The notes beneath the pieces were generated by a model. That model saw nothing but the letters and a program-made list of their open reading frames with translations, did no database searches and was not told where the DNA came from. DNA of 64,000 bases, taken from positions 14,305 to 78,304 of IMG/VR virus record IMGVR_UViG_3300008459_000024; one strand, given 5' to 3'. This document shows positions 1 through 63,369 of the stretch, piece after piece; the stretch's first letter is position 1, and the number at the start of each line of letters is the position of its first letter. The position numbers and the translations under genes were made by a program. Origin of the DNA: a virus.

Positions 1-963
1 ATTAACCGATAATGATTTTTGACAAAGAGCAACATCAGTCACAGTTAGGGTATAACTACCTGAAGATAGATTATTAAAAGTTACAACAGTGTCATAACTA
101 ACTTGAGAATCACCATTACTTAAAAGATAATAGTAAGGACCTGTGCCACCTGTGATACTATACGTTAAAGAACCTGTAGCTCCCGAACATGATGGTGGAG
201 TCTGATTTGTATTAATTATTGATATAGGCAATGCATCTACAATAGTTGCACTTTTTGTTACGGAACACCCATACGAATCTGTGACAGTACAAGAATAATT
301 GTTAGAGGTTAAACCTGTAATAAAATTATTTGTAGTATCACCTGTTATGAATCCTGACCACTGATATGTAAATGGAGACGAACCAGTTAAACCTGTGATA
401 TAAATTTTACCATTCGTTAAAGAACATGACGGGTTATTAATGACATAAAATCCGTAGTCTAATGTTGGCGAATCGTAAATTATTGTGTTTTCAGAAGTTC
501 CAATACATCCTCCGTAATTATTGCAAACAGCATAATAAACCCCCTCACCTAAATTACTAAAGGTATATGAGTCACCAACTGTTGTGACTGCAGAGATTTG
601 TAAACCATCCTTATATAAAGTTAACGTATTTGTACCGTAGTTTGTTGGTGTTGTCGCAACTAATGAACCATTTGAATTGCCACATGTGGTATTGAAAACA
701 CTACCAAGACTTACAGTTGATGAAGATGTTATGTAAAAATTTATTAACTGATTAACGTTATTGGTATCAGTAACAAAAAATGAATAACTTCCTGCGGACA
801 ATGATGTAATTGAGTAGTTGTTACTTGTAGATGCTGACGCATAAGATGACGGTACTGACCAAGTAATGTAAAATGGAGACGCTCCTGATAATGCAATTGA
901 CATTGCACCCGAATTTGTACTCTGACAATCTCCTGTTAATGATATGTTATATTCTAAAGGCAT
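1..963 (-). CDS. SprB-repeat/Ig-like repeat virion protein (partial, runs off window start; not in ORF track)
   Basis: Open frame from ATG at 963 to base 1 (MPLEYNISLTGDC...). Contains repeats such as PSC..GKIYITGLTGSSPFTYQW...GLTSNNYSCTVTDSYGC and TGGTGPYYY...LSSGSYTLTVTD..C, typical of SprB repeats. Confidence 0.8.
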   Translation of the reverse strand, partial: MPLEYNISLTGDCQSTNSGAMSIALSGASPFYITWSVPSSYASASTSNNYSITSLSAGSYSFFVTDTNNVNQLINFYITSSSTVSLGSVFNTTCGNSNGSLVATTPTNYGTNTLTLYKDGLQISAVTTVGDSYTFSNLGEGVYYAVCNNYGGCIGTSENTIIYDSPTLDYGFYVINNPSCSLTNGKIYITGLTGSSPFTYQWSGFITGDTTNNFITGLTSNNYSCTVTDSYGCSVTKSATIVDALPISIINTNQTPPSCSGATGSLTYSITGGTGPYYYLLSNGDSQVSYDTVVTFNNLSSGSYTLTVTDVALCQKSLSVN

Positions 964-965
964 AA

Positions 966-3935
966 TTATGATAAGATGGCGGCAAATGAATATGTTAATG
1001 CGAAGTTACTATAAGGTAAAGTTCCAGGTATAGGTTCGAATTCCGGGTTAATCACAGTTGTAACAATATTACCATTAGAGTCTAAATTAAATTCAAATCC
1101 AGTTTCAGTTATAGATTGCGGATATGTAATTGCGTTAGTCTCTTCATTAGTAACAACTATTTGGCTCACATTACCTTGGATTATGAAATTATTCACAAAG
1201 TTCTCCCACTCTGTCTGAGTAAACTGTTCACCACAATTGTATGTTTCACTATTATTTGACGAAATCTGTATTCTATGTATTTGTCCATTATACAAATATT
1301 TAGTCTTATAATTAATCGCATATACCCAACTTGTTTGTGTTCCCGTACAATTAACAATTGGAACACTTGGGTAAGTAATTGCGGAAGTAAACTCAGGTGC
1401 CGGAGGTTCAATTGGTCCTGTTACCACTGAAGAAGGAGTACTAATAGTTGAAACTTGACATCCTCTTTGTCTTCGGTAAACAAACTTTTGTCTATGAAAT
1501 ACAGAATTCTCAAACTTAGTACCCGTATTCCATATAGTTGTCGCAGGTACAAATTGTTCAACAAGTCTAATCCAAAAATCACCAATACCATTAATATAAC
1601 TAATCATATTTTGGTAATTAAAGTTATTATTAGTTAAACCTGTATCTTGATTCATTGTTAAATACTTGAAAAATATTGACTGTAAAGTTGGGTATCCACT
1701 TGTTTTACCGTCAGATGAATATTGTCTATTTCTAACATTAATCATCTCACTCCAAAATGTATTATAGAATTTAAAGAAACTCTCATTCTGAGGTTTAGGA
1801 TTAATGAATGTAGAGTCCACCCCACCTACTTGCGGGTAAGGACTTGATAATCCAGTAATTGGAATTGGATAGTTTTTTGTTCGTGAAACATACCAAACAT
1901 CATAAGCCAAAGCTTGAGCCGGATTTAAAAATAAATCAACATTTTTTACATTTATAGTTAACCTATCATCACTTTGGTAATAAACCGCATCAAAGATATT
2001 ATCTGTTCCGATTCGATTACCTGTCTCACTATCCGTCCAACTCTTTTTATTGTCAACTTGTTTTTTAATTGAGAACCCTAAATCCATATATGGGAATTCT
2101 CTAAATCTATCTAAATATTTTTGTCCATAAGTGAATCCTTCTAAAGTAGTTTGAACCGAAGTATTTGGACCTGTAAATGTACTATTGTTAACATCAATTA
2201 CCTGAGGACTTCTATGACTTGGTGTTGATTCAAACCATCCTTCCCCTTTTTGGAAAAAGAAATTGTCATTAAAATTAGGATTGGTCGGGTATCCATTTGT
2301 GTCGATTGGATAGTCTCCGGCAGTTGTATCAACACTAATTACTTGTGTTGACGATGTGTAAGCCGTGTATTGTATACCTCTAATTAAAAATAAATTATTA
2401 GGGTCAGATACTGGTGTTGTGGGAATATATGTCCCACCTTCAATCTGTGTAAAGTTTTGATTGAATTGTTCAACATCAATTTTACCGTCAACAAGGTAAA
2501 CATTCTCATTAAATTCTAATAATGCGTCAGGTACACCTATGTTTTCCATTAAAAACTCAATGCTCTTTCTCGTACCTTTTGATTTAAAAAGGTATGCCGA
2601 GTTTAATATTAAGTTTCTATAATACTGGTTATTTAAATCGGTAATTGTTTGTGGTGTCGAGTACGCAGGAAATGCGTTTTCAGTCGTACCATAAACAGAG
2701 TTTAAAAATCCAACATTCGTAATAGGAGATATATTGGTTCCCCACCCTAAGGTCTGAGCTAAATTAACTACCAAATTCGAAGGAATGTCGTTACCAATAT
2801 TATAATTTACTGAATTAGCGTATTGGATAGCGTCAATATACTTTTTATTCTCATCAAAACTTCTACCATAAATTTTGAGAACTTTATCAACTTTAAGGTC
2901 AGGAGTATCGAATTCTTGGAAGGAATCTGTAACATAGAATCTTGAAACCAAGTTTGTTTTAAACACATCAAAATTACTACCAATCTCATTTAAATTATTT
3001 AAATAGAATGTAAATGAGGATGTACGAATATCTATATTCCATTGACCATCCATCGGCCAAGTTAAATTTTGAAAACTAATAAATTGTGTTCCATCGTCAC
3101 CTTCAGTCGGTACTTGGAATTTTGCGGTATACTTTGGGTATGAATATCTATTTAATAGAATCTCTTCAACTTCGTCAAGTTCAAGATTAAACACCTCATT
3201 AACAACAGTATCATTAAGTCTGATAACATAATCATCACTACTTGTAGATGCCCCCGAAAAAGGGTTCCCAATTACTGATATAGTTAATGTTCCTGCACTA
3301 ACTGAAGACGAAGGGGTTAATAAACTAAGTTCATATTTATTATTATTAATATCAAGTATGTAACTTCTAAATGTCTTTTTTAAATTACGGTATTTTGAAA
3401 CTGAATAATCTAAACTACCTAAGTTAATGTCCGCATTTTGTGAGAAATCAATTCCAAATGGATTTCTAATAATCTCAATCGGAACCGTAAAACTTGTAAT
3501 ATTCTCGTTCTGAGTATAAGTAATCCCCGTTGCCGTTGACCCGCTTGTAAAGTTTTGACGATACTTGGAAATCTCTAGCCCAGCAGGAAAAAAGTTAATT
3601 ATATTTGTAACCGCAGCTTCAAATCTCTTAACCAATGAACCATAATTAACAAAGTTTAAAACATTTGTTTGGTCAAAGTTTGGATAAATTCTGAAGTTTT
3701 TATCAAAGATATTTTGAGATTGAGCCTCTGAGGTAACTGATAACGAACTTAACGTAATCGGTTCTGAGAATACACCCGTATCAAAATCTCTGTTTGACTT
3801 TTGAACAACCGATGTGGTAAATGCGAAGTTACCTTGCGTAAGTCCTCCACCATCGGTAATCTGTAAACCGACTAAATTGTCAGAGAATGTACCTGAACCT
3901 GAATCTGTTTGTGGTGGACATGTGTACTTCGCCAT
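966..3935 (-). CDS. baseplate wedge/tail protein with P2 gpI-like core
   Basis: 989 aa. NLAQTLGW...AYLFKSKGTRKSIEFL resembles the gpI-type KGT motif; lies in the baseplate gene block. Confidence 0.6.
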   Translation of the reverse strand: MAKYTCPPQTDSGSGTFSDNLVGLQITDGGGLTQGNFAFTTSVVQKSNRDFDTGVFSEPITLSSLSVTSEAQSQNIFDKNFRIYPNFDQTNVLNFVNYGSLVKRFEAAVTNIINFFPAGLEISKYRQNFTSGSTATGITYTQNENITSFTVPIEIIRNPFGIDFSQNADINLGSLDYSVSKYRNLKKTFRSYILDINNNKYELSLLTPSSSVSAGTLTISVIGNPFSGASTSSDDYVIRLNDTVVNEVFNLELDEVEEILLNRYSYPKYTAKFQVPTEGDDGTQFISFQNLTWPMDGQWNIDIRTSSFTFYLNNLNEIGSNFDVFKTNLVSRFYVTDSFQEFDTPDLKVDKVLKIYGRSFDENKKYIDAIQYANSVNYNIGNDIPSNLVVNLAQTLGWGTNISPITNVGFLNSVYGTTENAFPAYSTPQTITDLNNQYYRNLILNSAYLFKSKGTRKSIEFLMENIGVPDALLEFNENVYLVDGKIDVEQFNQNFTQIEGGTYIPTTPVSDPNNLFLIRGIQYTAYTSSTQVISVDTTAGDYPIDTNGYPTNPNFNDNFFFQKGEGWFESTPSHRSPQVIDVNNSTFTGPNTSVQTTLEGFTYGQKYLDRFREFPYMDLGFSIKKQVDNKKSWTDSETGNRIGTDNIFDAVYYQSDDRLTINVKNVDLFLNPAQALAYDVWYVSRTKNYPIPITGLSSPYPQVGGVDSTFINPKPQNESFFKFYNTFWSEMINVRNRQYSSDGKTSGYPTLQSIFFKYLTMNQDTGLTNNNFNYQNMISYINGIGDFWIRLVEQFVPATTIWNTGTKFENSVFHRQKFVYRRQRGCQVSTISTPSSVVTGPIEPPAPEFTSAITYPSVPIVNCTGTQTSWVYAINYKTKYLYNGQIHRIQISSNNSETYNCGEQFTQTEWENFVNNFIIQGNVSQIVVTNEETNAITYPQSITETGFEFNLDSNGNIVTTVINPEFEPIPGTLPYSNFALTYSFAAILS

Positions 3936-4874: not shown

Positions 4875-5945
4875 TTAAAACTGAGTTTTAATCACATTAA
4901 AGAATTTATATCCATATTCTTCAAGTGAACTAAGAGTCCTAACTTCCCCTATCCGTCTAAAGTTTTCCAAAGCACTATTCTTACCCCTTTCAACAAAAAC
5001 ATTAGATAACAATTGAGCTTGGTCTATAATATTTAAGTAAACCTCATTCTTCACTATCGGTTCGTGTTCAACAAAAGTTTCAGTCAAACCAGATGAATAA
5101 TATCTAAATATAGATGTACCGTTACTATAGTCTACATATTCCAAATCATTTATTGTGTATGCAGTATATGTGGTAGTGTTTTCAGTCATAACACCCGTTC
5201 CTCCCCCATCAATAGGAACTGAAGTCCCTAACGGAGGAAACCCTCCATAAGTTTTAATATCCCCTATTTTTGATTTAGTATATCCAGTTATAAGATATGG
5301 TAATGCAACCACCTGAACCTCAGAATCTGTTGTTGTATCTGCTGACGTATAAAAATTCATCTCAGTCGGTATTGTTGACCAAGAATTCTCAAAATTCTGA
5401 AACGTAACTGTCCCGTATGGATTATCTACCGAAGTAACTCCGTATGGTACCGTTATGTCTTTAGTCACAATGATTTGCCCAAAGGATGTTATATGAATCA
5501 ATTTGATTTCATAAGTTCCATTATCAGAATATGTGTGGTCGAAATAAGGGTTAACACTATCAATAAATTCAATCGCCGAACCATCACCCCAAGATATTTG
5601 AAAAAGTGATGTTGACAAATAATTAACGTTGGAATTCTTGGACGTATTATAAACTATAATAGAATTTAAGTCGGAGTCGTAAGGGTTTTTAATAAAAATA
5701 AAGTTTTCAGACACGTTAATCTGAGCAATGTTTCCATCAAAAACAGAATAATATCCAACGTCTTGATATTCTTGTTTTAATAAAACAGGAATTGTTAAAT
5801 TCGTCAATAAAGATGAGCCGTTTGTTCCTCCCGATAATATATACGTCAACCCCGAATAAACTCCAAAAGTATTACTATTATATGTCTCTTGTATTATATC
5901 CGAATTTAAAAAACCCGGCGATATTTGTATTTTAAAAGTTTCCAT
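4875..5945 (-). CDS. PKD/Ig-like domain structural protein
   Basis: 356 aa. ISWGDGS...HTYSDNGTYEIKL is a PKD signature. Confidence 0.65.
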   Translation of the reverse strand: METFKIQISPGFLNSDIIQETYNSNTFGVYSGLTYILSGGTNGSSLLTNLTIPVLLKQEYQDVGYYSVFDGNIAQINVSENFIFIKNPYDSDLNSIIVYNTSKNSNVNYLSTSLFQISWGDGSAIEFIDSVNPYFDHTYSDNGTYEIKLIHITSFGQIIVTKDITVPYGVTSVDNPYGTVTFQNFENSWSTIPTEMNFYTSADTTTDSEVQVVALPYLITGYTKSKIGDIKTYGGFPPLGTSVPIDGGGTGVMTENTTTYTAYTINDLEYVDYSNGTSIFRYYSSGLTETFVEHEPIVKNEVYLNIIDQAQLLSNVFVERGKNSALENFRRIGEVRTLSSLEEYGYKFFNVIKTQF

Positions 5946-19873: not shown

Positions 19874-19886
19874 TTTTTTTATTTTT

Positions 19887-20615
19887 TTAATTATTCACAT
19901 ACTCCCAAAAAAAACCACCACACGAATTTCTAACTCCTTTACAAACTGAAACAATATTACCTTTATTTTTAATATTATTTTTTTTAGAAGCAATTTCTAA
20001 CGATGGATATATTTCTAAAACTTTTTTTGTTTTTAAACATATTTTTTTTACTTTTCTAACATTTTTTGCAGGTTTCCCTTTTAAGTAACTATTCTGACTA
20101 AGTTTTAATTTATGTTCTTTTGTTAATTTTTTCCCAATCAAAGAATTACTTATATTTTTTTTAGTTTGTTGAGTTCTTTTTTTCCCCTTACCGGATTTTC
20201 CAATTTTTTCTTTATGTTCGTCAGACAATTTTTTACCTTTCCAATAATTATGTTTCCCTTTATTACTTTTTGATATTTTTTTTTTAGTCTCCTCACTCGG
20301 AACATAATTAAGATTTGACTCACCTCCATCGGTTAAATTAAGCAATTGATTATTTTTTTTATAATTTTTTATCCAATAAATTTCTTTTTCAACCCATTCA
20401 TTATCATTTGTTTCTTCAATTACTCTTATTCCAGGGATTTTATTTTCTTTTAACATTTTTATTATCCACAAATATAGAGGTCTTTTGACATTTTTTTTAC
20501 TTAAATAAATGTGTTGTCGTAACCTTTCATTTATACTTTTTTTTGTTTTTCCAACATACCTTATTATATCAGGTTTGTCTGGATGAAAAATTCCATAAAT
20601 CACAATTGTTTCCAT
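19887..20615 (-). CDS. free-standing GIY-YIG homing endonuclease with NUMOD3/NUMOD1-like DNA-binding repeats
   Basis: VIYGIF...[21 protein letters not shown], repeated [22 protein letters not shown] units; extremely A-rich coding strand. Confidence 0.9.
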
Positions 20616-51428: not shown

Positions 51429-51764
51429 ATGGCAGTTCAAAAATCAATACCTATGTCCCGAGTAATATCGGGAAAAGTTTTGACAACATCTGAGATATGT
51501 GTTGTATCTGAAAACAAATATATAACTGAAGGTGAGTCAGTAATTATTACAAAAATTGTGGATAACTGTGAAGTTATTATAAATCATGAAAACACCGACC
51601 ACGTAATAATTAAAGCATTAACTAATACAAAAATTAGACCCATTACAGGTCTAATTGATGAAGAGTTTAATGAGATTAATATTGAAAAAGGAGCGTGTGT
51701 TGAGTTATACTACGGATTTGGTTCATGGTATATTGTTTCATCTGATGGATTAAAACAATCTTAA
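51429..51764 (+). CDS. small hypothetical beta-rich protein
   Basis: Likely start MAVQK; follows the neck gene. Confidence 0.55.
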   Translation: MAVQKSIPMSRVISGKVLTTSEICVVSENKYITEGESVIITKIVDNCEVIINHENTDHVIIKALTNTKIRPITGLIDEEFNEINIEKGACVELYYGFGSWYIVSSDGLKQS

Positions 51765-52330
51765 ATAATCTTATCACCTTTACTTAAATTATCATACGCC
51801 CATAGCGGTTGTAAATTAGTGTAATGACATAATTTATTTATATCTTCTGAACAATTCGCTGATGATAGGGGGGTTATGTGGTCAATATGCCAACTCCCGT
51901 AGTTGTCCCACGACATCCCATCTCTAAATTGTTTTTCCAAATGTTCTCTTAAAAATTCAGTGGTACACCCAACCAAATCCAACGTCTTGTTGTCCTTGTG
52001 AATTTTTTTACTTTTCATAAATTGGACAATTCTACTTCTCAAATTAGACATCATCCTCAATGTTACGTTTTCTCTTTTTTTAACCCTAAGTTTATTAATT
52101 ATGTCTTCTTTATTTTTTCTGTAATATTGTTTAATTCTTACTTGTTCTTTTTCAGTATTCTCATGATACCTATCCACTCTTCTTTTTTTTAATTTTTCGG
52201 AGTTAATCAAGTAATATTTTTTTTGACATTCTTTACACTCAGCCCTTAAACCATTTTTATTTCTAGATGAATATGAAAATTCACAAATTAATTTGTCTTC
52301 ACCACATTTTGAACAAATTTTATTTATCAT
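51761..52330 (-). CDS. HNH/endonuclease VII-like homing endonuclease
   Basis: CSKC..CKEC zinc finger; GMSWDNYGSWHIDHITPL...HYTNLQPLWAYDNLSK. Confidence 0.85.
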   Translation of the reverse strand: MINKICSKCGEDKLICEFSYSSRNKNGLRAECKECQKKYYLINSEKLKKRRVDRYHENTEKEQVRIKQYYRKNKEDIINKLRVKKRENVTLRMMSNLRSRIVQFMKSKKIHKDNKTLDLVGCTTEFLREHLEKQFRDGMSWDNYGSWHIDHITPLSSANCSEDINKLCHYTNLQPLWAYDNLSKGDKII

Positions 52331-52466
52331 AATATTCTCTTATCAATTTTTCAATTATACGGGAAGGTTTAAAATTATCTGACTTTATTTTATCATATAA
52401 TTCTCTGTCTAAACTTATACTAACTTTTATTTTTTTATCATTAGTGTCTTTTTTTGGTCTTCCCAT
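52320..52466 (-). CDS. small ribbon-helix-helix protein
   Basis: MGRPKK..KIKVSISLDRELYDKI...PSRIIEKLIREY; start 4 nt after TATTTAT. Confidence 0.75.
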   Translation of the reverse strand: MGRPKKDTNDKKIKVSISLDRELYDKIKSDNFKPSRIIEKLIREYYDK

Positions 52467-52503
52467 AACTATAAATATTAGGTAATTAGTAAAAGTAGTA
52501 TTT

Positions 52504-55302
52504 TTATTTAATAAATTTTTCCCATCCTTCTTCAGCGAAATCATAAATGTGATTTGGGTCACCATTTATTGATTCCCAAAATTTCCATTCCTCTGGAGAT
52601 ATGGTTAAAACATCTTCAACCTTATCTTGGTCACCTTCTTCAAATGGAAGTCCATTAATTAATTTACATTGTTCCTTTGTGAATATACCTCTTTTACTTG
52701 GGTCATCCACAATAAGATTATTTCTTACTTCTTCACCAAATACAATCAACAATGGTTCAATACGTTTGTTAAATGTTACCACAGCTCTTGGGACATTATA
52801 TTCACCTAACACATTTGGGGTGTTTTCAATTTCTGATGGGTCCAAACGGTAACAATTAAGTTGCACAAATGAATCCATTTTATCATCTAAAACTTTACCA
52901 TAATTTCTGAAATAGGTGTCAATGTGGTCTTGTTTCCACCCTGTTTTTGGTTTGTTAACTTTTTGAACGTCCCCATGAGAGGCTTTAACACCATTATTCA
53001 CATAGAAAATAACGTCTCCCAAACTAACTGCGATGCCGTCTCTCATAGCTAATTCCATATGACTCATTCTTGACATCTCATTACCGGCTTTGGTCTTTTC
53101 TTTTGAACGTTTCAAATAATCATCAATTGATAACTTAACCTTAGCTCTTTGGGCAATCTTCATAAGTGGAATTTGTCTGTTGTAGATAATCTCTAAATAC
53201 TCATAATACCACTCAACAAACTCCTGCCCATTACCTTCTAACAACATTTTAATTCCTTTATCCAAAAAGTCCTCAATGTATAATGGTAACTTTTTACTCT
53301 TGATTGAGTTACCTGTAAGTTTAATCTTCCCGTTGTGTTCCATTGTTGCATAGTTCTTACGAGCAATGTTCATACAGGATTTCCAAGTCCCGTCGTTATC
53401 TAAAGACATTGCCCCTTTCATAAATGTGTCATTATATTCCGCAACATCTGCATCATACCCCCTGTATTCTTTACCTTCTTTAACTCCCCAATTAGTCCCT
53501 TTACCAATATAAATTCTATCATCCACCCCTTCTTTTGGTAAACTAAAATTGACTCCATCAGTGTCAAGAACCAAGGGAGTATATCCTTTAGATATGAAAA
53601 AATTCATCATTTGTCTTAAATACTGACGGCCAGTACACGTAATCATTTGACCCTTATCCATATCACCCCAATGGAAAACCTGAGGTGCTGACAAAGCCCC
53701 GAAAAGTGAGTTGATAAAAATCTTAATTGGTAATTGTTTTCTATCGTATGATGTTGCTTGTTTCTTATCAATATCCTGATATTCTTTGGCCAAGTTTTTA
53801 TACTTGATACGAGTATTACGGAAGTAATTTAACATTCCCTTCATCGCTCCTGTGATATCACAAGTTGGGAATACGTCGTGAACCAACTGAATGGATGGAT
53901 AAAGTGACGAGAAGTCAAGTTTCAATACATCGGTAGAAAATCCAACTTTAAGTAATCGTGATAATCCTCCTACGAAATCTGTCTTTTCATTTTTAGCAGG
54001 AATTGCAAGTCCGTGTTTATAAGACCAAGCTCTCATTTGGATTTCCCACAATGTCGCAGTTCCCATAGTAGAAACCCGTTCATATGTTGTTGGGACCAAA
54101 GACGCAAGTAGGAATGAACCCTGATTGAACTCTTCGTCAACAGTTAGAGTTTCCTCCAAGTCATCGTCAAGATATCTCTCAACCAAATCATCACCTGTTG
54201 TCTTAATATAAACTTTTGAGTGTTTTGAACATGCCTCATCAATTGTGGGGTCAATCCCCACTTTCTTATATTTACCATTTTGGATATTTAACCAAAACTC
54301 TTCTTTCTTCGCATAAAACGGACCAATGTCTGTGTGGTCAATATAAACACGGTCAGGAGCTTCAGCTTTGATATATTGAGTAATATACTTCAAACCTGCA
54401 GATTTAATAGATGAATTAATTGCCTGTGCTCGTCTAACGGCATGTAATGTATCCACAACATTGTAACCCCACATTGATGTCTGGTTAAACCTCTCAACTT
54501 CATTTGCCAATTTCAACATTGACTCAGATTGTTTGATTGGGTTTGCGGGATTTAGAGTTTTGGCAATCTTTTTAATATCCAATTTTAAAGCCTTAGCCCT
54601 TTCAAATATCCAAAACCAGTCAAAGTTAAATCCGTTATAAGACGCGATAATACTTGGTTTAAGTTCATCTATTGTGTTGAAGAACTTTATAATACCTTCT
54701 CTTTCTTGTTCTTCAGTTGAACATTCAATTACTTGACTAAAACCTTTATTGGTTTTCATTCCTATCATAAAAATACGACCATCCTTTGGTTCAAGTGATG
54801 TCGTCTCCAAGTCAAATACAAACCTTGTGATACTATTGTAATCGTCAAACCCTTTGAATAATCGTTTTTCTTTTGTGACCAAAAACTGCTCAACAGGGGG
54901 TAGGATTAGAATCAATCCTTTAGTTTTTTCTCCCCAAGGGTCAACTCCCCCGTCTCTGAAAAATTGTATTAATGAACGATATCCGTTCAATGATTTAACC
55001 ATATAGGTCAATCCTCTTTCCAATCTATCATTACCATCGGTACGTAGTTTTTCAATGACAATCTTATGTTTTGTCATCGCCTCTTTTTGTAATGCTTTTG
55101 AGGATTGGTAAAAATTTAATCCACGTAAATCACCGACCCAAGCAAATGGGACAAACGTGTCTTTTTTAATTTGTTTTCCGTGGAGGGGGTGTTCGATAAT
55201 CTTCCAAACACAATCTTTGACATAATCGTATTCAACACCGATTATATACTTTTCATCATCATTTCCTTGTAGGAAATTCTCAATTTCTTCATTAGATATC
55301 AT
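52504..55302 (-). CDS. polB: family B DNA polymerase
   Basis: FDLETT, YNGFNFD, DFSSLYPS, KIFINSLFG, DTDG, KNYA. Confidence 0.95.
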   Translation of the reverse strand: MISNEEIENFLQGNDDEKYIIGVEYDYVKDCVWKIIEHPLHGKQIKKDTFVPFAWVGDLRGLNFYQSSKALQKEAMTKHKIVIEKLRTDGNDRLERGLTYMVKSLNGYRSLIQFFRDGGVDPWGEKTKGLILILPPVEQFLVTKEKRLFKGFDDYNSITRFVFDLETTSLEPKDGRIFMIGMKTNKGFSQVIECSTEEQEREGIIKFFNTIDELKPSIIASYNGFNFDWFWIFERAKALKLDIKKIAKTLNPANPIKQSESMLKLANEVERFNQTSMWGYNVVDTLHAVRRAQAINSSIKSAGLKYITQYIKAEAPDRVYIDHTDIGPFYAKKEEFWLNIQNGKYKKVGIDPTIDEACSKHSKVYIKTTGDDLVERYLDDDLEETLTVDEEFNQGSFLLASLVPTTYERVSTMGTATLWEIQMRAWSYKHGLAIPAKNEKTDFVGGLSRLLKVGFSTDVLKLDFSSLYPSIQLVHDVFPTCDITGAMKGMLNYFRNTRIKYKNLAKEYQDIDKKQATSYDRKQLPIKIFINSLFGALSAPQVFHWGDMDKGQMITCTGRQYLRQMMNFFISKGYTPLVLDTDGVNFSLPKEGVDDRIYIGKGTNWGVKEGKEYRGYDADVAEYNDTFMKGAMSLDNDGTWKSCMNIARKNYATMEHNGKIKLTGNSIKSKKLPLYIEDFLDKGIKMLLEGNGQEFVEWYYEYLEIIYNRQIPLMKIAQRAKVKLSIDDYLKRSKEKTKAGNEMSRMSHMELAMRDGIAVSLGDVIFYVNNGVKASHGDVQKVNKPKTGWKQDHIDTYFRNYGKVLDDKMDSFVQLNCYRLDPSEIENTPNVLGEYNVPRAVVTFNKRIEPLLIVFGEEVRNNLIVDDPSKRGIFTKEQCKLINGLPFEEGDQDKVEDVLTISPEEWKFWESINGDPNHIYDFAEEGWEKFIK

Positions 55303-55362: not shown

Positions 55363-55391
55363 AGTTTAATAAAATAAAATCCCCTTGTCAA
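55363..55391 (-). promoter_or_regulatory. sigma70-like promoter of polB
   Basis: TTGACA-N17-TAAACT. Confidence 0.7.
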
Positions 55392-55798
55392 CAACAGGGT
55401 CTAACAATCACATAGTCGTTATTAAATGAAGTATAGTCTAAAGAAAAACTATCAATAATATTTACGAACACATCTTCTTTTAATGGTAGAACTACTTCAC
55501 CTTGTGAATCACTTAATGAAATTTTAACTTTAAATCTACCTTCTTTAGATACTTCTCTGTTCGTAAATTGATAATTTAAATAATATATGATATTTTGAGA
55601 ATTAGTTGTGGAGGCACTTGTTGTAATATAGCATGGTTTAGATGTTACCCTATATTTTTCAGTCTCACTATCAAATAACGATATATATGCAGTTACTCCA
55701 CTTAAATTTTGAATCTCATTAAAATCGCTTCTACCATTTTGAGAAATCTCAACTTGGAATATAGGTAATGTTGAATTTTTTTTAATAAACCATTCCAT
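55388..55798 (-). CDS. BppU-like Ig-fold structural protein, paralog 2
   Basis: MEWFIKKNSTLP...YQF....EGRF...VLP. Confidence 0.55.
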   Translation of the reverse strand: MEWFIKKNSTLPIFQVEISQNGRSDFNEIQNLSGVTAYISLFDSETEKYRVTSKPCYITTSASTTNSQNIIYYLNYQFTNREVSKEGRFKVKISLSDSQGEVVLPLKEDVFVNIIDSFSLDYTSFNNDYVIVRPCC

Positions 55799-55799
55799 A

Positions 55800-56165
55800 T
55801 TAGTTCACGTATTTTTTACCTATTCTTATGAATAATTTATCTTGAATTGGTAGTATTTGTGTACCACTATCATTAAGTAATGTAAATTCTCCTTCGTATA
55901 ATCCAGGTGTATTCGTATCCGAAGAGTTAAATCTATAATACACATAATACTCGGGTTTAGAGTTAGGGTCAATAAAAGTTTTTTCAACAAATCCAGATAT
56001 ACTGTTCAATATTTTGTACGACCCGTTCTCAACATTTTTCATGGAAAAATAGATGGTAGAACTCTCAATCAACGAATTGAATTCATCAATATTTGCAACT
56101 CCGTCTTTGACGTATTGCATCTTTAAGATTGGTAATGTTGCCCCTTCTGAAATATAAAACTCCAT
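55800..56165 (-). CDS. BppU-like Ig-fold structural protein, paralog 1
   Basis: MEFYISEGATLP...YRFNSSDTNTPGLYEGEF...ILP. Confidence 0.6.
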   Translation of the reverse strand: MEFYISEGATLPILKMQYVKDGVANIDEFNSLIESSTIYFSMKNVENGSYKILNSISGFVEKTFIDPNSKPEYYVYYRFNSSDTNTPGLYEGEFTLLNDSGTQILPIQDKLFIRIGKKYVN

Positions 56166-56191: not shown

Positions 56192-57859
56192 CTAACATTC
56201 TTTCCTTAAATTACTTGAATAATGTTCAAATCTATTGTGTTCAGTTGGGGTTAATAATAAAATTCCCGAACTCAATAATCCTTTTACCGTCTGTTGGTAA
56301 TTGTGGGACATTATTGTCTGTTCATATGGGTGTTGGAATTTTGTCTCTAAATAACACTTATAACTTCCTGACTTAGATAATACAATTGGCCAATTACACA
56401 AATAGATTTCACCTGAAGCGTATGGAATTCCCTTATGTGATTTTATATTGTTGAAATTTGTTTTGGGAGCGTTCTCATCAATACCTTGTTTTGGTAGTTT
56501 CTTATTTTTAGGCCAATGGATTTCTCTAAAGTGTTGTGGAACGTTGTACCAACTCCATTGGACGCTATTATCCCCATAAAATTCAGTAAAGTTCAGTTTT
56601 AAAAAATCAAATTTTTCTTTATGGACTATCTCTAAACTTTTTTGATAAAGTTTTTCGGTATATCTCAAAAACCCATTTTTACAGGATTCTCCTTTTTTCG
56701 GATAGAAGAACATATCATCCTCAAAAAAATACATGAAATCTAATCCTGTTTCTTCAAAATGTTCGGCAATCCACTGTCGTCCACCTGTAATACCTATATT
56801 GTCTTTTTTAATATGTTCAAAACCATATGTTTCACATAATTCAAGATATTTTGGGGTTGTGTCTAAATCAACAGAATTGTCTAAAAGATATTTTTTAGGT
56901 TTATCAATAAAGTCTCTATCGTATTCAATCATTGATTTAATCAAAGTTTCAAATTGATTAGGACTATTAAAGGTTATAACATAAAGAGCAACATTATTTA
57001 AATCTAACGGATTGTCAAATTGAACAAATTCTGTTTTTTTTACTAAGGTTTCATTTTTTAAATCTTCAAAAAATTTACCAAATAATCCGTTTGAATCTAT
57101 TTCAAAATAGTTAATTTTTGACGGATGTTTATAAACCATTATCGAGAATATGGATTCTTCAGTGCCCATATATCCTTTAGATAATGTCTCATTCATTAAA
57201 TTATAATAATCCGAATTAATCTCACCTATAGTATCTTTTGGACCTCCAAAAAATCCTCCTCTGGCCACTTTTTTAATATCTGAACCTGAAAACTCATTTA
57301 TTTCAGGATAAGTAAATCCATGAATTTCGTTTTCAGCATCATATGGAAAACAAACAAATGTAAATTTATCTATGTATTTGTCCAACTTTTCTATAACCTT
57401 ATCGTGTGTAAAGTATCCTGGATGTACAGTATTTGTTAAACCCGCATCAATCCAAAATAAATTATCTGAATTAAATTTGTCTAAAATTCTAGCATCATTA
57501 AGTAGAAACATTTTAGACATAACTAAAGGATTATACATATCAAGTCTTGATTGAGTCGAATCCTTTAACCATCCTGACTGATTATACCAGTTTGGGTTAT
57601 TTCGTATATTTTGTATCTTATCGTAAAAATCGTTATTAGTGAACCATGTTTTGTCACGAATAATAAATTGAGTGTTTAACACATCTCTCCTTTCCCATAC
57701 AAAATCTTCTAACTCTTTCTCACCAAAGATTATTAAGTTTTCTTCAACTTTAAGTAATTGTTCAAACTTATCTAAGTAGTGTTTAAAAGTTCGTGACCAT
57801 CCTTCAGATAGTTCGTCTCTACCAATATTCCAAAGTCCTGTAACTAATGTAATACTCAT
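56192..57859 (-). CDS. two-domain glycosyltransferase: HtrL/YibB-like plus GT2-like
   Basis: ITLVTGLWNIGR, SKMFLL, FWIDAG, GGFFGG, GTEE; second domain VITFN..DNS..FFEDD. Confidence 0.8.
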   Translation of the reverse strand: MSITLVTGLWNIGRDELSEGWSRTFKHYLDKFEQLLKVEENLIIFGEKELEDFVWERRDVLNTQFIIRDKTWFTNNDFYDKIQNIRNNPNWYNQSGWLKDSTQSRLDMYNPLVMSKMFLLNDARILDKFNSDNLFWIDAGLTNTVHPGYFTHDKVIEKLDKYIDKFTFVCFPYDAENEIHGFTYPEINEFSGSDIKKVARGGFFGGPKDTIGEINSDYYNLMNETLSKGYMGTEESIFSIMVYKHPSKINYFEIDSNGLFGKFFEDLKNETLVKKTEFVQFDNPLDLNNVALYVITFNSPNQFETLIKSMIEYDRDFIDKPKKYLLDNSVDLDTTPKYLELCETYGFEHIKKDNIGITGGRQWIAEHFEETGLDFMYFFEDDMFFYPKKGESCKNGFLRYTEKLYQKSLEIVHKEKFDFLKLNFTEFYGDNSVQWSWYNVPQHFREIHWPKNKKLPKQGIDENAPKTNFNNIKSHKGIPYASGEIYLCNWPIVLSKSGSYKCYLETKFQHPYEQTIMSHNYQQTVKGLLSSGILLLTPTEHNRFEHYSSNLRKEC

Positions 57860-58419
57860 TCTGTGTCTCTAACTTTATAAATTATGTGGTCAACAAACTC
57901 ACTTTCAAACATTTTACCTATTTCTTCGTAAAAATAAACATCACCTAAAACGTCTTCTCTAAAATTTGGTAAATTATGAGTGTTTGGAATTACTCCCATA
58001 CACTTACCAACATTTCCAATAGTAAAATCTTTTAGTTTCCAATTAATATCCCCGCCCCATTTGTGTTTAAAAATATACAATGTATTAGGATTAGTTATCG
58101 TCTCCTTAATCACCTTAAATGCTTCGGGAGTATATCTGTCATCATCATCCGCAAACATTATAAAATCACCTTCTAAATTGTTCATGTGTTGGTTCAGTAA
58201 TGGGTGTCCATATTTCCATAATTGTTCCCCTTCATTTTTAATGTGGTTAACTTTAAATTTGAAATTAAATAATTTTAAAACTTCGGAAACATATAAATGA
58301 TTAGTGTCGGATATAATTGTAAAAATATCACTCTCATCTAATTGGTCTTTAAACGATTCAATTAATCTTGGTAAGGTTATTCTACCAACTGAAGTACAAA
58401 CAATATTAATATTATACAT
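57856..58419 (-). CDS. GT2-like glycosyltransferase
   Basis: TSVGR.TL.R, IISD, IMFADDDD, GDVYF. Confidence 0.75.
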   Translation of the reverse strand: MYNINIVCTSVGRITLPRLIESFKDQLDESDIFTIISDTNHLYVSEVLKLFNFKFKVNHIKNEGEQLWKYGHPLLNQHMNNLEGDFIMFADDDDRYTPEAFKVIKETITNPNTLYIFKHKWGGDINWKLKDFTIGNVGKCMGVIPNTHNLPNFREDVLGDVYFYEEIGKMFESEFVDHIIYKVRDTE

Positions 58420-59275
58420 AACACTTTTCTCTTAGGTATTTTGATTCATCATAAATGTCTAAAATCTGTAAAAACCCCTTTTGTAAATCTAACCAATCAC
58501 CAAACTCAAATGAGTAACAACTGTCAGATTTCTTGGATGTTAGTACCGTGAGGACCTCTTGTTCACTTATTAACTGATTGTATTTTTCTAAGTAACTTGT
58601 AAAAATGTCTAAATAACCATCTAATAAATGTCTAACATCTTTAGACTTCCCACCAAATAGACATCCAGGAACTACTTTTAGTTCTACACCAAATAACGAC
58701 TGAAACCTTTCTTTTATTTCGTAATTCATAACAATTGAATTACCTTTTAAATGTATAAATCCGTGAGAATTTATTTTATCTGTAATCTTATCTAAAAAAT
58801 TCTTTGAGTTGATTATTGGAGCCATGTAATCTCTCCACCCATCGTGACATGATGTTCCTATTAATCCAGCGTCAATCCAAAATAACTTCTCACAATCAAC
58901 CGACTCATCAATTAAGAATTGTAATTTGTTTAAAACTACCTCCAAATAATTGTTAACACAATAAATTCTATCATAGTTCATTCCGCCTGATAATTCTTTG
59001 TGTCTCACTTTATCGATTAACTCACAAGAAGGTGAAGTGTTTAATTCTTTAAACTTGAATTGAACGTTAGGATAATTAAACTCATCTTTTAGATTAAATT
59101 TATCATATGAATTTTGGTCAGTGTAAATTACGTAATTATAGTCAGGAAAAATAATATTTTTTATTGTTGCAACTAATAATGGGAAATTTTTGTATCTCTC
59201 ACCGTTTCTTTCTGTTACGTAATTTAGTTCATAGATTGAACTAACTATTTTAGTACCATTTGTCATGTTCGGCAT
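58412..59275 (-). CDS. HtrL-like glycosyltransferase
   Basis: VIYTD, KLQFL, FWIDAG, GCLFGG, SEQ; paralogous to the N-domain of 56192..57859. Start uncertain. Confidence 0.7.
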   Translation of the reverse strand: MPNMTNGTKIVSSIYELNYVTERNGERYKNFPLLVATIKNIIFPDYNYVIYTDQNSYDKFNLKDEFNYPNVQFKFKELNTSPSCELIDKVRHKELSGGMNYDRIYCVNNYLEVVLNKLQFLIDESVDCEKLFWIDAGLIGTSCHDGWRDYMAPIINSKNFLDKITDKINSHGFIHLKGNSIVMNYEIKERFQSLFGVELKVVPGCLFGGKSKDVRHLLDGYLDIFTSYLEKYNQLISEQEVLTVLTSKKSDSCYSFEFGDWLDLQKGFLQILDIYDESKYLREKCYV

Positions 59276-59960
59276 AAATTATATTTAATGATTTATTTGA
59301 GTTATTACCAACATCAATTCCGTTAATTAATGCGGAAAAACACATCTCATCGATATTTCCGGCTGGTATGTTTCTTAAAGGTTTTGTTTTCTTATATTCG
59401 ATACATCTATCCCATGATGATAAAAAATGTGAAATTCTATCTTCATCAATACTGATATATTGTATACAATCTTCCGGCATAAACGATAGTTTATCCTTAT
59501 CAACAGGATTATTAAAGTACCTCTCGTACTCAACTAAACGATTACCTAACTCACTATTAGTATTAATTTGTTCTGAAAAATTATAAGTCACTGGTCCTAA
59601 AATTGAATTTTTCTTAAATGAGTTAATTATGTTTTCCTCATTGAATAGTCCGTGATTAACTCTCATGTCTGCATCTGTTAAAATAATATTAGTATACCCT
59701 AATTTAAACGCCGCAAAAACAGAGAATCTTTTTACTGAAAAATCAAAGTCGTAATAATTTTTAGCATAATTAGAGTAGTCAGGATTAAAATCATTAATAT
59801 TGAATACTGTAACAAAAGATTCTTGATTAATTTTATTAGGGTTATCAGTCATAACCACTAAACTCGGATGATACTCAGATTTACTAATATCACCAATAAA
59901 CCTATTAACTTGTTCATAGTATCTGTCTCCGAAACAGAAGGTTGCAAAACAAAATTTCAT
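59250..59960 (-). CDS. GT-A fold glycosyltransferase
   Basis: FATFCFG.RY, VMTD, KRF, ILTDAD (DxD), DE motif. Confidence 0.65.
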   Translation of the reverse strand: MKFCFATFCFGDRYYEQVNRFIGDISKSEYHPSLVVMTDNPNKINQESFVTVFNINDFNPDYSNYAKNYYDFDFSVKRFSVFAAFKLGYTNIILTDADMRVNHGLFNEENIINSFKKNSILGPVTYNFSEQINTNSELGNRLVEYERYFNNPVDKDKLSFMPEDCIQYISIDEDRISHFLSSWDRCIEYKKTKPLRNIPAGNIDEMCFSALINGIDVGNNSNKSLNIIYAEHDKWY

Positions 59961-61204
59961 AATTTACCACTTAATCTTTCACACCATCCTTTAGATTCTG
60001 AGTGAGGCCACACAACCCAGTAAGATGGTTTTTTATTTGTATCAAATGACCTCCATATTTTACCATATCCATCAGGGTCATTTAAAATTCTATTAACTTC
60101 TCCTTTTTCAGCGTCTTTTCTGAAAAGAGTCTCATCGTTCTCATCATGGAAGGCAACAACCCAAAAATCATAGTCTGGTTCAGGAACACTACTAAATGGA
60201 ATATCGATACAATGTTTAAAAATAATTGAGAATGAATTAATCCATTCCTCCTCAGATTCATAATCATATGAACATGGTGGGTATTCTTTATCTATGGTCG
60301 CCCTTTGTACTCCTCGTTTTGAGAATAAAATACCGGAATATTTTTCATAGTCTCGTAATGTTCGTTCAGACCCAAAACCGTATTTACCAAATTCCATAGG
60401 TTCTTCACCATCCATACCAAATAAGGACCTGTTTTTTTTGTGACAAAACTCATTTTTCTTACCCCATTCTTTGTCATCGTCCCATTGTTTTGTCCTTCCA
60501 TTACGAGTATATTCATGCCAAATTAATGTCTTATGAGGGTGAAATAAATCATAACCATGAGTATAAGCTCTAACCGCAATTGAAATTTCTTCCCCGTGGA
60601 AATAGTATTCAGGGTCATGCTGAACCTCTTCTGAGAATTGTCCTAAAGTGAAACAAAAATGGGCCGAGTAGAATCTTGAAGGGACGGGTTTAGTTAACTG
60701 TTTATAGTTAGGAATTGTTTCAGGTAAAAAGAATATCGCACCTTCAGGGATAAATCTATCAAAAACCATTCTCCATGGGTCGTATACTCTATCCTGAGGG
60801 TCATTGTCGGGATTGAATGATGAAACATATGAAGTTAGTAACGGTTTTTTATATCCGTCTTTTTGTAGTTGTTTAATCATATCAATTAGTTCAGTATCCC
60901 ACCCACCTGCAAATCTCATGTGAGAATCAATTTGAAGTGTGTATTCCTCACCATTATATTGTTGTTGGATTAAGTTTCTTGCCCAACAAGCACCTTTAGA
61001 TTCGGTGTAGGGAATGTCGATAATTTTAAAACGACTATCGTTTCGATATTCATCTAAATTATCAAATTTGTCATCTTCATGATATTGTCGAGCAATTGAG
61101 AAAACCAAATTCTGTGGGGAATTTGCCATTTTAATTGCCGACTGTATAGTTGGTATTAATTGCGGGTCCCGATAAGATGCAATTTGAATAAAAATCCTAC
61201 TCAT
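59957..61204 (-). CDS. GT60-like (Skp1 GlcNAc-transferase family) glycosyltransferase
   Basis: IFIQIASYRDP, SKGACWAR, LQIDSHMRF..WD, FHGEE...RAYTHGYDLF.P, WHEY. Confidence 0.85.
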   Translation of the reverse strand: MSRIFIQIASYRDPQLIPTIQSAIKMANSPQNLVFSIARQYHEDDKFDNLDEYRNDSRFKIIDIPYTESKGACWARNLIQQQYNGEEYTLQIDSHMRFAGGWDTELIDMIKQLQKDGYKKPLLTSYVSSFNPDNDPQDRVYDPWRMVFDRFIPEGAIFFLPETIPNYKQLTKPVPSRFYSAHFCFTLGQFSEEVQHDPEYYFHGEEISIAVRAYTHGYDLFHPHKTLIWHEYTRNGRTKQWDDDKEWGKKNEFCHKKNRSLFGMDGEEPMEFGKYGFGSERTLRDYEKYSGILFSKRGVQRATIDKEYPPCSYDYESEEEWINSFSIIFKHCIDIPFSSVPEPDYDFWVVAFHDENDETLFRKDAEKGEVNRILNDPDGYGKIWRSFDTNKKPSYWVVWPHSESKGWCERLSGKL

Positions 61205-61245
61205 TTTTTCTTTTTGTTGAAAAAATAAATAACAATCAATAATAA

Positions 61246-63369
61246 TTAAATAGTGAAGGTAACTTTTAATGTTTGGTCAATACCACTAAAATAGAAATAG
61301 TAATTAGAGTTCTCATAAGTTGTGGGAGTAACAACATTACTAAACGATAATCCATTACCAACATAAGTTCTATTAGGATATGTTGCTGATGAATATGATA
61401 GATTAAAAATTTGAGAACTTAGAGTAGTTGAGCTAAATTTAATACTTGTACCATTACCACTATAACCAATATCATTAATTAGAGTCGTTGTGCAGTTTGG
61501 ACATCTGTAATCAAATAAACTAAACGTGTTTTTTAATATGTCAAAGTTGTGAATTACTTCAGGGTATGATAATGGTTCGGTATACATTCTAAACTGAGAT
61601 ATCGCACCATCAAATGAACCGGCAAAATTTGGTTCTATAAATATATCTGTCGTTAATGCGGATAATGAAGTACCTGATAAAGTTTGGTTTGGCATACACT
61701 CAGGGTCCTGTTGGTAGGTTAGTCCTGATAGGGTTTGAGGACATGCTGAAAAAGTTAAACTTTCTCTTAATCCTTGTGTTCCTCCTCCCCATGAAATATT
61801 AAATGGTACACCTATTTGTTTTTCTTTTTCTGTGTTTAAACCTCTAGGTATAACTTCCTCAAACCCATTTATTACATAAAATAATCGACCATTAACATAT
61901 AATTTTAAAGAACCTAATCTATAATCACTCTCAATTAACCATTTTTCATTTAAATTAACAATCTCAACTTGTTCAGGTACTGTACCATCAATTTGAGTGT
62001 ATGGTGGTTGAATTAAACTTACAGTATTTTGAGCCAATGAGTTCACATAATATGTGTTTGAAATAATGTCCAATCCTCCTCGGTATAATAAATCACAGTT
62101 ATCAAAGTATGTATTTCTTTCCCATACACAATCAACTAAAAACCAATGTTCTTTAGTTAGAAATCCTGGGTTCACATCTGAACAGTAATTAAAAATTTGA
62201 TTACTTGAACAATATTCAGTCACCGTATACCCTGTGGTATATGTTATACCTGAAGTATCGCAACTACCGGTTGTTTCACATCCACCTGTGAATTTTAATA
62301 CTTTAACACAAATTTTAGGATTTTTAGGGTCGCCTGACAATCTAAGTGAAAAAGTATTAGACATCGAATCGTATAACGGGTCCTTATCGGGAGATTCGAC
62401 AGTTGTTTCAGAACACCCACAATTACAAGTTGTATTATGTTGGCTAGTATAAGTTGTTGGTTCGTAAATATAATCTAAACATCTCGATATTGTCTCGGCG
62501 GTGTTACTACAAGCACAAGTCGATAAACATCCCGATAACGAAGATGTTACTCTTGTATAACCCGAATCAGATAAAGGAGACCCTGTAACATGATGATAAA
62601 ATTTATTCTCAGCTCTGGTTCCAAAATAGAAAAACGTATTATCATTTTGGGGGTAGGTTAAATTAAGAGTTGTTTGAGCCGACGTAGGATAATACTCATC
62701 TTCCTGTCTGGCTCTTAATAACATTTCAACCGACCATCCTAAATTACATCTATTTGGAAAAGTTTCATAATCATACCCAAATAGTTTAAAGAATCCTTGG
62801 TTAAACCCTCCGTATAATTGATTATATATTCCTTCAGTCCCTCCGCTTTTTGATACAATATTATAAACAGTTTGTTTAGTATTACCACTAAATCTATCTG
62901 AATTTGTTGTGTAGGCGGTTATTGGTATTAACTTAGTTCTCCTGTCAAAATGGTATCTATCCCATTTACTTGTACCGGTATATAATCCCATACTGAAATA
63001 TATGGTTTCACCTGACATTTCAGGAACTAATCCATTATCAATACCCGTTAAACCAATATCACATAAAGTATTTCCAGTATAACAACTTAAATCAACATTG
63101 TTAGGATTATAGTAATTTAATGAAACTAATGTGTTACCACTTATAAACGACCCATAGTTTAAATTAAATAATTGAGATGAGTTAGCATTATTTAAATCAA
63201 AATAAATTGGTAATCGATTACCATCATTTACCCCGATAAGTTCGGTTGAAAAGACAACTTCTTCATTGTAATCTTTTTCATCTGAAGACAATGAAATATC
63301 GAAAACTTTTCTTACTGGTTTAATATACCATTTAGGGAAATTGTATTGATTTATATTCTGTTGAGCCAT
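61246..63369 (-). CDS. Cys-rich LamG/concanavalin-like virion protein
   Basis: 707 aa. WSVE, LKLYVNG, FDGAISQFRMY..PLS..EV..NF; about 21 Cys. Confidence 0.65.
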   Translation of the reverse strand: MAQQNINQYNFPKWYIKPVRKVFDISLSSDEKDYNEEVVFSTELIGVNDGNRLPIYFDLNNANSSQLFNLNYGSFISGNTLVSLNYYNPNNVDLSCYTGNTLCDIGLTGIDNGLVPEMSGETIYFSMGLYTGTSKWDRYHFDRRTKLIPITAYTTNSDRFSGNTKQTVYNIVSKSGGTEGIYNQLYGGFNQGFFKLFGYDYETFPNRCNLGWSVEMLLRARQEDEYYPTSAQTTLNLTYPQNDNTFFYFGTRAENKFYHHVTGSPLSDSGYTRVTSSLSGCLSTCACSNTAETISRCLDYIYEPTTYTSQHNTTCNCGCSETTVESPDKDPLYDSMSNTFSLRLSGDPKNPKICVKVLKFTGGCETTGSCDTSGITYTTGYTVTEYCSSNQIFNYCSDVNPGFLTKEHWFLVDCVWERNTYFDNCDLLYRGGLDIISNTYYVNSLAQNTVSLIQPPYTQIDGTVPEQVEIVNLNEKWLIESDYRLGSLKLYVNGRLFYVINGFEEVIPRGLNTEKEKQIGVPFNISWGGGTQGLRESLTFSACPQTLSGLTYQQDPECMPNQTLSGTSLSALTTDIFIEPNFAGSFDGAISQFRMYTEPLSYPEVIHNFDILKNTFSLFDYRCPNCTTTLINDIGYSGNGTSIKFSSTTLSSQIFNLSYSSATYPNRTYVGNGLSFSNVVTPTTYENSNYYFYFSGIDQTLKVTFTI

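Follow-up and report, generated by a model that had tools for sequence, protein, structure and literature searches.

Background

To our knowledge, most demonstrations that phages glycosylate their own particles with enzymes they encode come from mycobacteriophages, and we know of no short acceptor motif for it. The characterised members of the glycosyltransferase family GT60 (PF11397), Skp1 Gnt1 of Dictyostelium and the mucin enzyme of T. cruzi, are polypeptide alpha-N-acetylglucosamine transferases that initiate O-glycans directly on proteins. Their known acceptors are hydroxyproline (Skp1) or Thr in Thr/Pro-rich mucin tracts (T. cruzi), and we are aware of no characterised phage or bacterial member. 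In the Xanthomonas jumbo phage XacN1, at least two virion proteins were stained as glycoproteins by the Schiff procedure (PMC5852040). Here we describe a 64,000-nucleotide stretch of viral DNA, hereafter the window, which covers positions 14305-78304 of the single 78,304-bp virus contig IMGVR_UViG_3300008459_000024 of IMG/VR. It contains an operon of five overlapping glycosyltransferase-type genes (56192-61204), located directly downstream of, and in the same orientation as, the gene of a virion protein of 707 amino acids (aa), and it encodes virion proteins rich in the tetrapeptide [ST][GA].T (Ser or Thr, Gly or Ala, any residue, Thr). An earlier note on this DNA had proposed that the tetrapeptide is the acceptor site of the operon enzymes. 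We find that the motif is a real, selected and group-specific feature of the outer virion proteins.

Excess of the motif in virion proteins

The motif-bearing proteins of the window are the following, each with its observed and, where available, expected number of motifs:

61246-63369, minus strand: 707-aa LamG/concanavalin-like virion protein, 13 motifs against 1.5 expected, the top carrier
41902-45084, minus strand: tail sheath of 1060 aa (Pfam Phage_sheath_1/1C, phrog_23), 11 motifs against 2.9
44068-44682, minus strand: insertion region of the sheath, aa 135-339, with 10 of the 11 sheath motifs
1-963, minus strand: Hoc-like protein of 712 aa with SprB repeats, of which the window encodes the N-terminal 321 aa, 7 motifs against 1.9 (14 in the full protein)
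4875-5945, minus strand: 356-aa protein, 6 motifs against 0.8, with a PKD_4 match (E=0.003) below the Pfam cut-off
966-3935, minus strand: 989-aa protein encoded after the wedge genes of the baseplate, 6 motifs against 1.7
55388-55798, minus strand: 136-aa protein between the operon and PolB, 2 motifs against 0.09

The hand counts of the earlier note in five carriers (13, 11, 7, 6 and 6) were all reproduced exactly. Pooled, these five proteins contain 43 motifs against 8.9 expected from global composition-preserving shuffles, an approximately 5-fold excess (z=12), and against 10.7-11.4 when the shuffles were confined to blocks of 20 or 10 residues (z=10); the enrichment announced in that note thus holds under both the global and the block scheme. 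In the same carriers the reverse motif (9 occurrences) and the permuted forms (9-14) were at expectation, as were [ST][GA].S (10 against 8.5) and [^ST][GA].T (29 against 32), and [ST][GA].[^ST] was likewise not enriched. The signal therefore requires the three positions, in this order, with Thr and not Ser at position 4. Local S/T/G-rich composition is ruled out as its cause by the block shuffles together with the reverse and permuted motifs. A DNA-level word is ruled out too: every codon family of Ser, Thr, Gly and Ala is in use at the motif, which places the signal at the protein level.

As a guard against choosing the motif after the fact, every three-residue gapped pattern was scored in all the proteins of the contig. 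SA.T (27 against 7.5, z=7.2) and SG.T (34 against 12, z=6.4) came out at the top, behind only Thr-Pro low-complexity patterns. The whole contig contains 104 motifs against 41 expected, including further carriers of 831, 734 and 280 aa, with 12, 11 and 8 motifs respectively, in the 14.3 kb upstream of the window. The absence of the motif from NrdA, PolB, DnaB and the RecA-like protein and its single occurrence in SNF2 were counted correctly before; these proteins are nevertheless not depleted, because only about 2 motifs are expected there against the 1 found. The motif was also rightly set apart from the Bacteroidota O-glycosylation sequon D-[ST]-[AILMVT] and from N-x-[ST], neither of which is enriched in the carriers (17 against 13.8 and 47 against 58 expected, respectively).

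No mutual similarity was found among the carriers by BLASTP, which rules out, at that level, a shared inherited domain. The statement that the carriers have unrelated folds can be kept at the BLASTP level only, and several motifs of the SprB protein (Pfam SprB, 3.7e-9; phrog_2973, Hoc-like) may belong to its repeat: they coincide with what we take to be the consensus positions of the SprB repeat. Some protein names of the earlier note also have to be read with care. The 989-aa protein, which has no Pfam or PHROG match, owed its label of wedge protein to its position near the gp6-like and gp25-like genes, and the PKD label of the 356-aa protein comes from the sub-cut-off match listed above; the count of 6 motifs was right in both.

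The 707-aa protein had been called LamG. No Pfam domain was detected in it or in any of its at least 1770 homologues, and the name is borne out instead by fold search and by a protein atlas, in which Laminin_G_3 occurs in related clusters. An AlphaFold model built from 46 close homologues reached a predicted local distance difference test score (pLDDT) of 46, and one built from a 99-sequence alignment a pLDDT of 89. Foldseek matched the model to LamG-like jellyroll viral proteins, among them virion structural proteins of Synechococcus phage S-PM2, with a probability of ~1.0 and with low TM-scores for the whole multi-domain chain. Matches in the PDB were concanavalin-like receptor-binding domains and clostridial neurotoxin binding domains, the latter mirroring only the common lectin fold. 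By comparison of the predicted structure, the protein has a jellyroll fold of the LamG/concanavalin A-like type. In the pLDDT-89 model, 11 of the 13 sites begin in coil, mostly just ahead of a strand; at 7 of the 13 a strand begins inside the motif or at most 2 residues after it, and the others comprise 1 hairpin turn, 1 site within a strand and 4 in longer loops. Hydrophobic or beta-branched residues are preferred at positions -1 and +4 of the motif.

The distribution of the motif over a whole proteome was obtained from G006, a complete relative of 293,850 bp that is syntenic with the contig of the window. G006 encodes 227 motifs where 93 are expected, and 12 proteins, each significant by itself, hold most of the surplus. 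They comprise a block after the baseplate genes, the orthologue of the 707-aa protein, a virion protein of phrog_1645 and two proteins encoded on either side of the head module. Within the post-baseplate block, a 1154-aa protein with 'virion structural' and 'tail spike' PHROG matches carries 34 motifs. Those of the 12 that have an annotation are virion proteins. The G006 sheath, which is not one of the 12, is enriched as well (8 against about 3 expected). In the window, the tail tube contains no motif. The excess is confined to virion proteins and outer sheath domains.

Conservation of the motif

Nine carriers were aligned to their G006 orthologues, with identities of 29-75%. Of 80 sites, 41 were retained, against 19.7 predicted from how often S/T, G/A and T residues outside the motif are kept in these proteins. 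Many retained sites swap S and T at position 1 or G and A at position 2, the third position being free. In the 707-aa family (46 sequences), sites 269, 290, 373 and 379 are present in 45-46 of the sequences and most of the remaining sites in 22-42; each homologue has 7-17 motifs against 0.6-6.4 expected, again with S/T and G/A swaps. As judged from these alignments, the motif is selected at the protein level.

The sheath behaves differently, with only 3 of its 11 sites common to G006. Across 26 sheath orthologues, motif starts fall in 37 alignment columns, only within aa 124-366 and 564-669, and neither the first 100 residues nor the conserved C-terminal core contains a motif start in any of them. 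In all but four of the 26, the insertion region (aa 100-360) has at least twice the expected number of motifs. Insertion domains of the sheath point outward in T4 gp18. Positional turnover at constant density on such outward insertions fits a surface tag and not fold-critical residues.

Specificity to the phage group

The nearest isolated phage by sheath sequence is Microcystis phage Mel-JY01 (33% identity; 35% G+C). It contains 72 motifs against 68 expected, 1 against 1.5 in the homologous sheath, and neither PF11397 nor PF09612 was detected in it. In 31 pieces of surface proteins, SprB-like or secreted by the type IX secretion system (T9SS), from a Ferruginibacter genome (Bacteroidota), 80 motifs were counted against 58.5 expected; the reverse motif also gave 80, and the surplus is therefore compositional clustering only. 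Together with XacN1, which like Mel-JY01 is an outgroup jumbo phage, these controls rule out that structural proteins of myoviruses or surface proteins of Bacteroidota show the excess in general. When the 907-aa fibre-like carrier of some relatives and the 280-aa carrier were compared with isolated phages by tblastn, no match was obtained. The motif excess is specific to this phage group.

The glycosyltransferase operon

The operon and the sequence word ahead of it are made up as follows:

61225-61231, minus strand: TATTTAT on the coding strand, 21-27 nt ahead of the GT60 start codon
59957-61204, minus strand: GT60-family glycosyltransferase of 415 aa, first gene of the operon, PF11397 E=6e-69
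59250-59960, minus strand: 236-aa accessory protein with a TDAD motif and a weak match to XacN1 ORF331 (E=0.004)
58412-59275, minus strand: 287-aa HtrL-like protein, matching the N-terminal half of the 555-aa enzyme by BLASTP
57856-58419, minus strand: 187-aa GT2-like protein, PF00535 E=2e-5
56192-57859, minus strand: 555-aa HtrL_YibB enzyme (PF09612 E=2e-13) with a second, C-terminal domain and a weak TAGT match (E=0.0096)

The assignment of the 415-aa enzyme to GT60 was firmly supported by sequence match over most of the PF11397 profile (233.6 bits against a Pfam cut-off of 21 bits; profile positions 92-349 and an N-terminal stretch). This enzyme is 45-50% identical to genes of XacN1, Xoo-sp13, CM1 and RAS14, and has no match in the PDB by sequence. 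Candidates for the metal-binding DxD/DxH motif of GT-A enzymes are an IDSH at about aa 92-95 and several triplets of the form D.D. The 555-aa enzyme is 42% identical to XacN1 ORF330 over its full length (E=2e-163) and the 287-aa protein 24% identical to ORF332, also over its full length (E=2e-8). The 236-aa protein, which has no Pfam match, is possibly a GT-A enzyme.

The GT60 and 555-aa enzymes recur across related phages and, by homology, appear as the core genes of the group. In the near-complete relatives G007 and G008, neither the GT2-like gene (also not found in XacN1) nor the 236-aa protein was found, and the sheath pieces are still enriched in the motif; a reader common to the whole group could therefore only be one of the two core enzymes, GT60 or the 555-aa protein. 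Relatives with the 707-aa gene directly next to PolB were considered as enzyme-free cases and rejected: of the 5 records checked, 4 encode GT60 and HtrL at another place, and the fifth has a completeness of only 30%.

TATTTAT precedes the start codons of the sheath, tube, 707-aa and several tail genes by 5-39 nt, and those of structural and late-looking genes as a whole by 3-39 nt; it was not found before NrdA, NrdB, DnaB, UvsX, SSB or PolB. Examples are at 4854, 14058, 37505, 39424, 40940, 41837, 45117, 56179, 61225 and 63378 on the minus strand and at 48733, 50278 and 63397 on the plus strand. Its total number (32 against 48 expected) is not above chance and only its placement is notable; the word may act as a late promoter. 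The glycosyltransferases encoded by these phages are conserved across the lineage and are either clustered or co-regulated with genes for structural proteins.

The position between the operon and PolB holds proteins of 138 to 1644 aa in relatives, including motif-rich ones of up to 1644 aa, and in some relatives a run of extremely motif-rich fibre genes lies between HtrL and PolB. For instance, fibre-like proteins at L021:2669-5392 and L030:2704-5430 (both plus strand) contain 54-56 motifs in about 907 aa, and one at L022:3493-5415 (plus strand) 36 motifs in 640 aa. The genes of these proteins are sited between the HtrL gene and PolB, and the motifs occur in tandem units and in internal repeats of about 93 aa. 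In the window, the same interval is occupied by two adjacent small paralogues (55388-55798 and 55800-56165, minus strand) that are 25% identical, one of which has a faint match to the gp19-like tail tube (E=0.08).

Proposed glycosylation and alternative readings of the motif

That the motif is spread over proteins without sequence similarity within one lineage, that its three positions are tightly coupled and that its sites turn over all favour recognition by a common factor. The likeliest single reading, to which we give somewhat less than an even chance, is that the motif marks sites read by a phage-encoded factor, with cytoplasmic O-glycosylation by the operon as the leading candidate. Exposed motifs of virion proteins would be recognised by one phage-encoded factor acting on many proteins, and the operon enzymes, with GT60 and the 555-aa HtrL-like enzyme as their core, would O-glycosylate Ser/Thr in the cytoplasm. 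In this scheme we infer the attachment of the sugar, the enzyme that would read the motif and the residue that would accept the sugar. The narrower proposal, in which the GT60 or HtrL-like core enzyme reads the motif in the cytoplasm as a genuine sequon for O-glycosylation, is doubtful. The earlier proposal is supported in so far as the motif is real, ordered, selected and confined to virion proteins, the 415-aa enzyme belongs firmly to GT60, and XacN1 combines a homologous operon with stained virion proteins; nothing ties the motif to the enzymes. Co-occurrence of the two across genomes was not borne out, XacN1 having both GT60 and HtrL without any excess and Mel-JY01 lacking both the enzymes and the excess. 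The readings discussed below overlap, and their probabilities do not sum to one.

Several observations weigh against glycosylation at the motif. XacN1 has 164 motifs where 172 are expected, and none of its proteins is strongly enriched, so possession of the operon does not predict the motif. Among the records checked, no member of the group devoid of GT60/HtrL was found. The tandem runs of the relatives (56 motifs in 907 aa, 36 in 640 aa) are made of five- or six-residue units with hydrophobic flanks and look like fibre or solenoid repeats, and a similar SGGT-x-TG motif is present in tail fibres of many phages. The recurring loop-to-strand position of the sites in the modelled 707-aa protein could also be explained by a structural role. 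The G006 major capsid protein (Gp23 family) shows at most a mild excess, with 4 motifs by hand count against an estimated 1.2 or so. Finally, Thr-Pro linkers are closer than the tetrapeptide to the known GT60 acceptors.

The alternative that survives best is a purely structural micro-motif, without modification, namely a turn or strand entry (hydrophobic-[ST]-small-x-Thr-hydrophobic) of beta-rich fibre, Ig-like and lectin-like modules; the glycosyltransferases would then act on Thr-Pro linkers, on a few specific proteins, on the host envelope or on DNA. It would account for the pentapeptide-like tandem arrays in the fibre proteins of relatives, the residue preferences at -1 and +4, the 7 of 13 sites at a strand start and the 1 in a hairpin turn, the strict choice of Thr over Ser at position 4, which fits beta propensity, the part of the SprB motifs that match the presumed repeat consensus, and the operon of XacN1 without motif excess. 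A general structural preference should however show elsewhere, and none is seen in Mel-JY01, XacN1 or the Bacteroidota T9SS proteins. The coupling is also tight, neither [^ST][GA].T nor [ST][GA].[^ST] being enriched, the carriers are not homologous at the sequence level, the sheath sites shift while their density is kept, unlike fold-critical residues, and the interchange of G and A is unusual for a glycine-dependent turn. On balance a structural micro-motif is unlikely, though by no means negligible.

It is improbable that the operon glycosylates the virion at mucin-like Thr-Pro linkers, the tetrapeptide being a separate feature that is either structural or read by a fibre chaperone or another modifying enzyme. 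Long Thr-Pro tracts occur in two proteins just upstream of the window. The 831-aa protein (contig positions 3078-5573, plus strand) has about 42 TPT triplets in its linkers, followed by a YVTN beta-propeller-like C-terminal region, and the 332-aa protein (12103-13101, minus strand) has a similar linker. In G006, the orthologues and the protein encoded beside the operon carry tracts as well, and Thr-rich mucin tracts and the Skp1 hydroxyproline are what the characterised GT60 enzymes act on. XacN1, without tetrapeptide excess, shows only about two stained bands (PMC5852040). On the other side, no prolyl hydroxylase (PF13640) was found in four relatives, the tracts are restricted to a few carriers where they could be mere flexible linkers, and the tetrapeptide is left unexplained.

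The proposal that the operon modifies phage DNA, as in T4, or the host envelope, with no relation to virion proteins, draws on its position near PolB here and in XacN1, on the weak TAGT match of the 555-aa enzyme and on the place of E. coli HtrL in a gene cluster for the lipopolysaccharide core. DNA-glycosylating phage enzymes are moreover common (10.1101/2023.12.21.572611; PMC13326640). The ThyA homologue of the group, however, keeps the equivalents of E. coli L143, D169 and N177 and is canonical for synthesis of deoxythymidine monophosphate (criteria of PMC13326640). Neither a C5 methyltransferase (PF00145) nor, in a search without positive control, Tet_JBP (PF12851) was found in G006, G007, G008 and G001, three of these genomes being 93-100% complete. 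Gene content therefore does not point to a T4-type or TET-type route to a glycosylatable base. With the operon bearing the TATTTAT word of the structural genes, which is absent at the replication genes, and with BssHII, NaeI and SpeI used for digestion of XacN1 DNA, which was analysed with cytosine-sensitive restriction enzymes, and XacN1 virions staining as glycoprotein (PMC5852040), modification of DNA or envelope alone is quite improbable.

Phage lineage and other features of the window

Family scans identified T4-like tail and baseplate genes in the window (sheath, tube, hub, gp6-like and gp25-like wedge) and a replication block comprising NrdA/B, DnaB, a UvsX-like protein, SSB, an exonuclease, an SNF2 helicase and PolB. 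A search of IMG/VR with PolB returned 200 related stretches, of which the 80 retained are 70-94% identical; the contigs include some of 272-294 kb that are 93-100% complete. From these large near-complete relatives, the lineage is an uncultured jumbo myovirus group, widespread in freshwater and probably infecting Bacteroidota.

PolB itself has 975 aa in some relatives (L006, L009, L023-L027, L037 and others) but 926-932 aa here; some lineages thus seem to have gained an insertion of about 44 residues. A GIY-YIG-type homing endonuclease between NrdB and DnaB (19887-20615, minus strand), without G006 orthologue, is probably a mobile insertion. An endonuclease VII-like gene (51761-52330) and an 81-aa open reading frame (ORF) at 52320-52565 are absent in G006 and present in L049. 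The ThyA homologue of G006 (L093:1483-2619, plus strand) has 378 aa, with canonical active-site residues and an insertion of about 38 residues between its conserved halves. The four relatives G001, G006, G007 and G008 all encode a glutamine synthetase-like protein (PF00120). In L114 (LR756508.1), a 484-kb uncultured phage in which PF11397 and PF09612 are lacking, two adjacent 824-aa ORFs (19620-22094 and 23109-25583) lie at and beside the sheath match and are possibly sheath paralogues; one of them has 5 motifs against 1.1 expected.

Significance and comparison with known systems

If the motif is a glycosylation site, no short sequon for the glycosylation of phage virions would have been defined before it, and a large and widespread freshwater jumbo lineage would cover sheath, fibres and lectin-like proteins with a glycan of its own making. 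Sugar-coated phage surfaces could then be predicted from sequence alone, and such a coat could influence adsorption, stability, grazing and recognition. If the motif is structural instead, it would still be an unusual rule, particular to this lineage, by which fibres and surface domains of phages are built. A four-residue tag on dissimilar virion proteins of an abundant lake lineage can be tested directly with peptides and recombinant enzymes.

The 'moraphages' are freshwater jumbo phages with predicted Flavobacteriia hosts (PMC12619734). They resemble the present group in habitat, genome size and possession of glutamine synthetase, and they have four core groups of putative glycosyltransferases to which no role was assigned; both may belong to one lineage or to related ones. 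No motif is described in that work (PMC12619734).

XacN1 shares with the window a homologous operon (GT60 48%, ORF330 42% and ORF332 24% identity) near PolB and baseplate genes. It differs by its lack of [ST][GA]xT excess (164 against 172), by a carbamoyltransferase gene in place alongside the absence of the GT2-like gene, and by its host and G+C content. Its glycoproteins are known from staining (PMC5852040).

In mycobacteriophages, as far as they are summarised in PMC12619734 (citing Freeman et al. 2023), phage glycosyltransferases encoded near structural genes decorate virion proteins in the cytoplasm, as proposed here, and the glycans are carried by C-terminal extensions of capsid and tail-tube subunits. 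The candidate sites of the present phage are in contrast internal, number in the dozens and occur on sheath, fibres and lectin-like proteins, with none on the tail tube of the window and hardly any excess on the G006 major capsid protein, and the enzymes belong to other families. The acceptors known for GT60, to which the 415-aa enzyme belongs by sequence, also differ from [ST][GA]xT.

The chlorovirus PBCV-1 encodes several glycosyltransferases that act independently of the host at non-canonical virion sites (PMC5408694, PMC9614988); it is a eukaryotic virus, with N-linked glycans on its major capsid protein and other enzymes. A resemblance in mode, though not in membership, links the proposed system to the autotransporter heptosyltransferases TibC and AAH, which act on TibA and AIDA-I and differ in enzyme family, sugar, substrates and organisms. 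They are cytoplasmic, and they hyperglycosylate Ser in short motifs of beta-helical repeats (PMC4358343). This precedent indicates that a sequon can be part of a structural repeat at the same time, to be compared with the tandem arrays in the fibre proteins of the relatives (PMC4358343).

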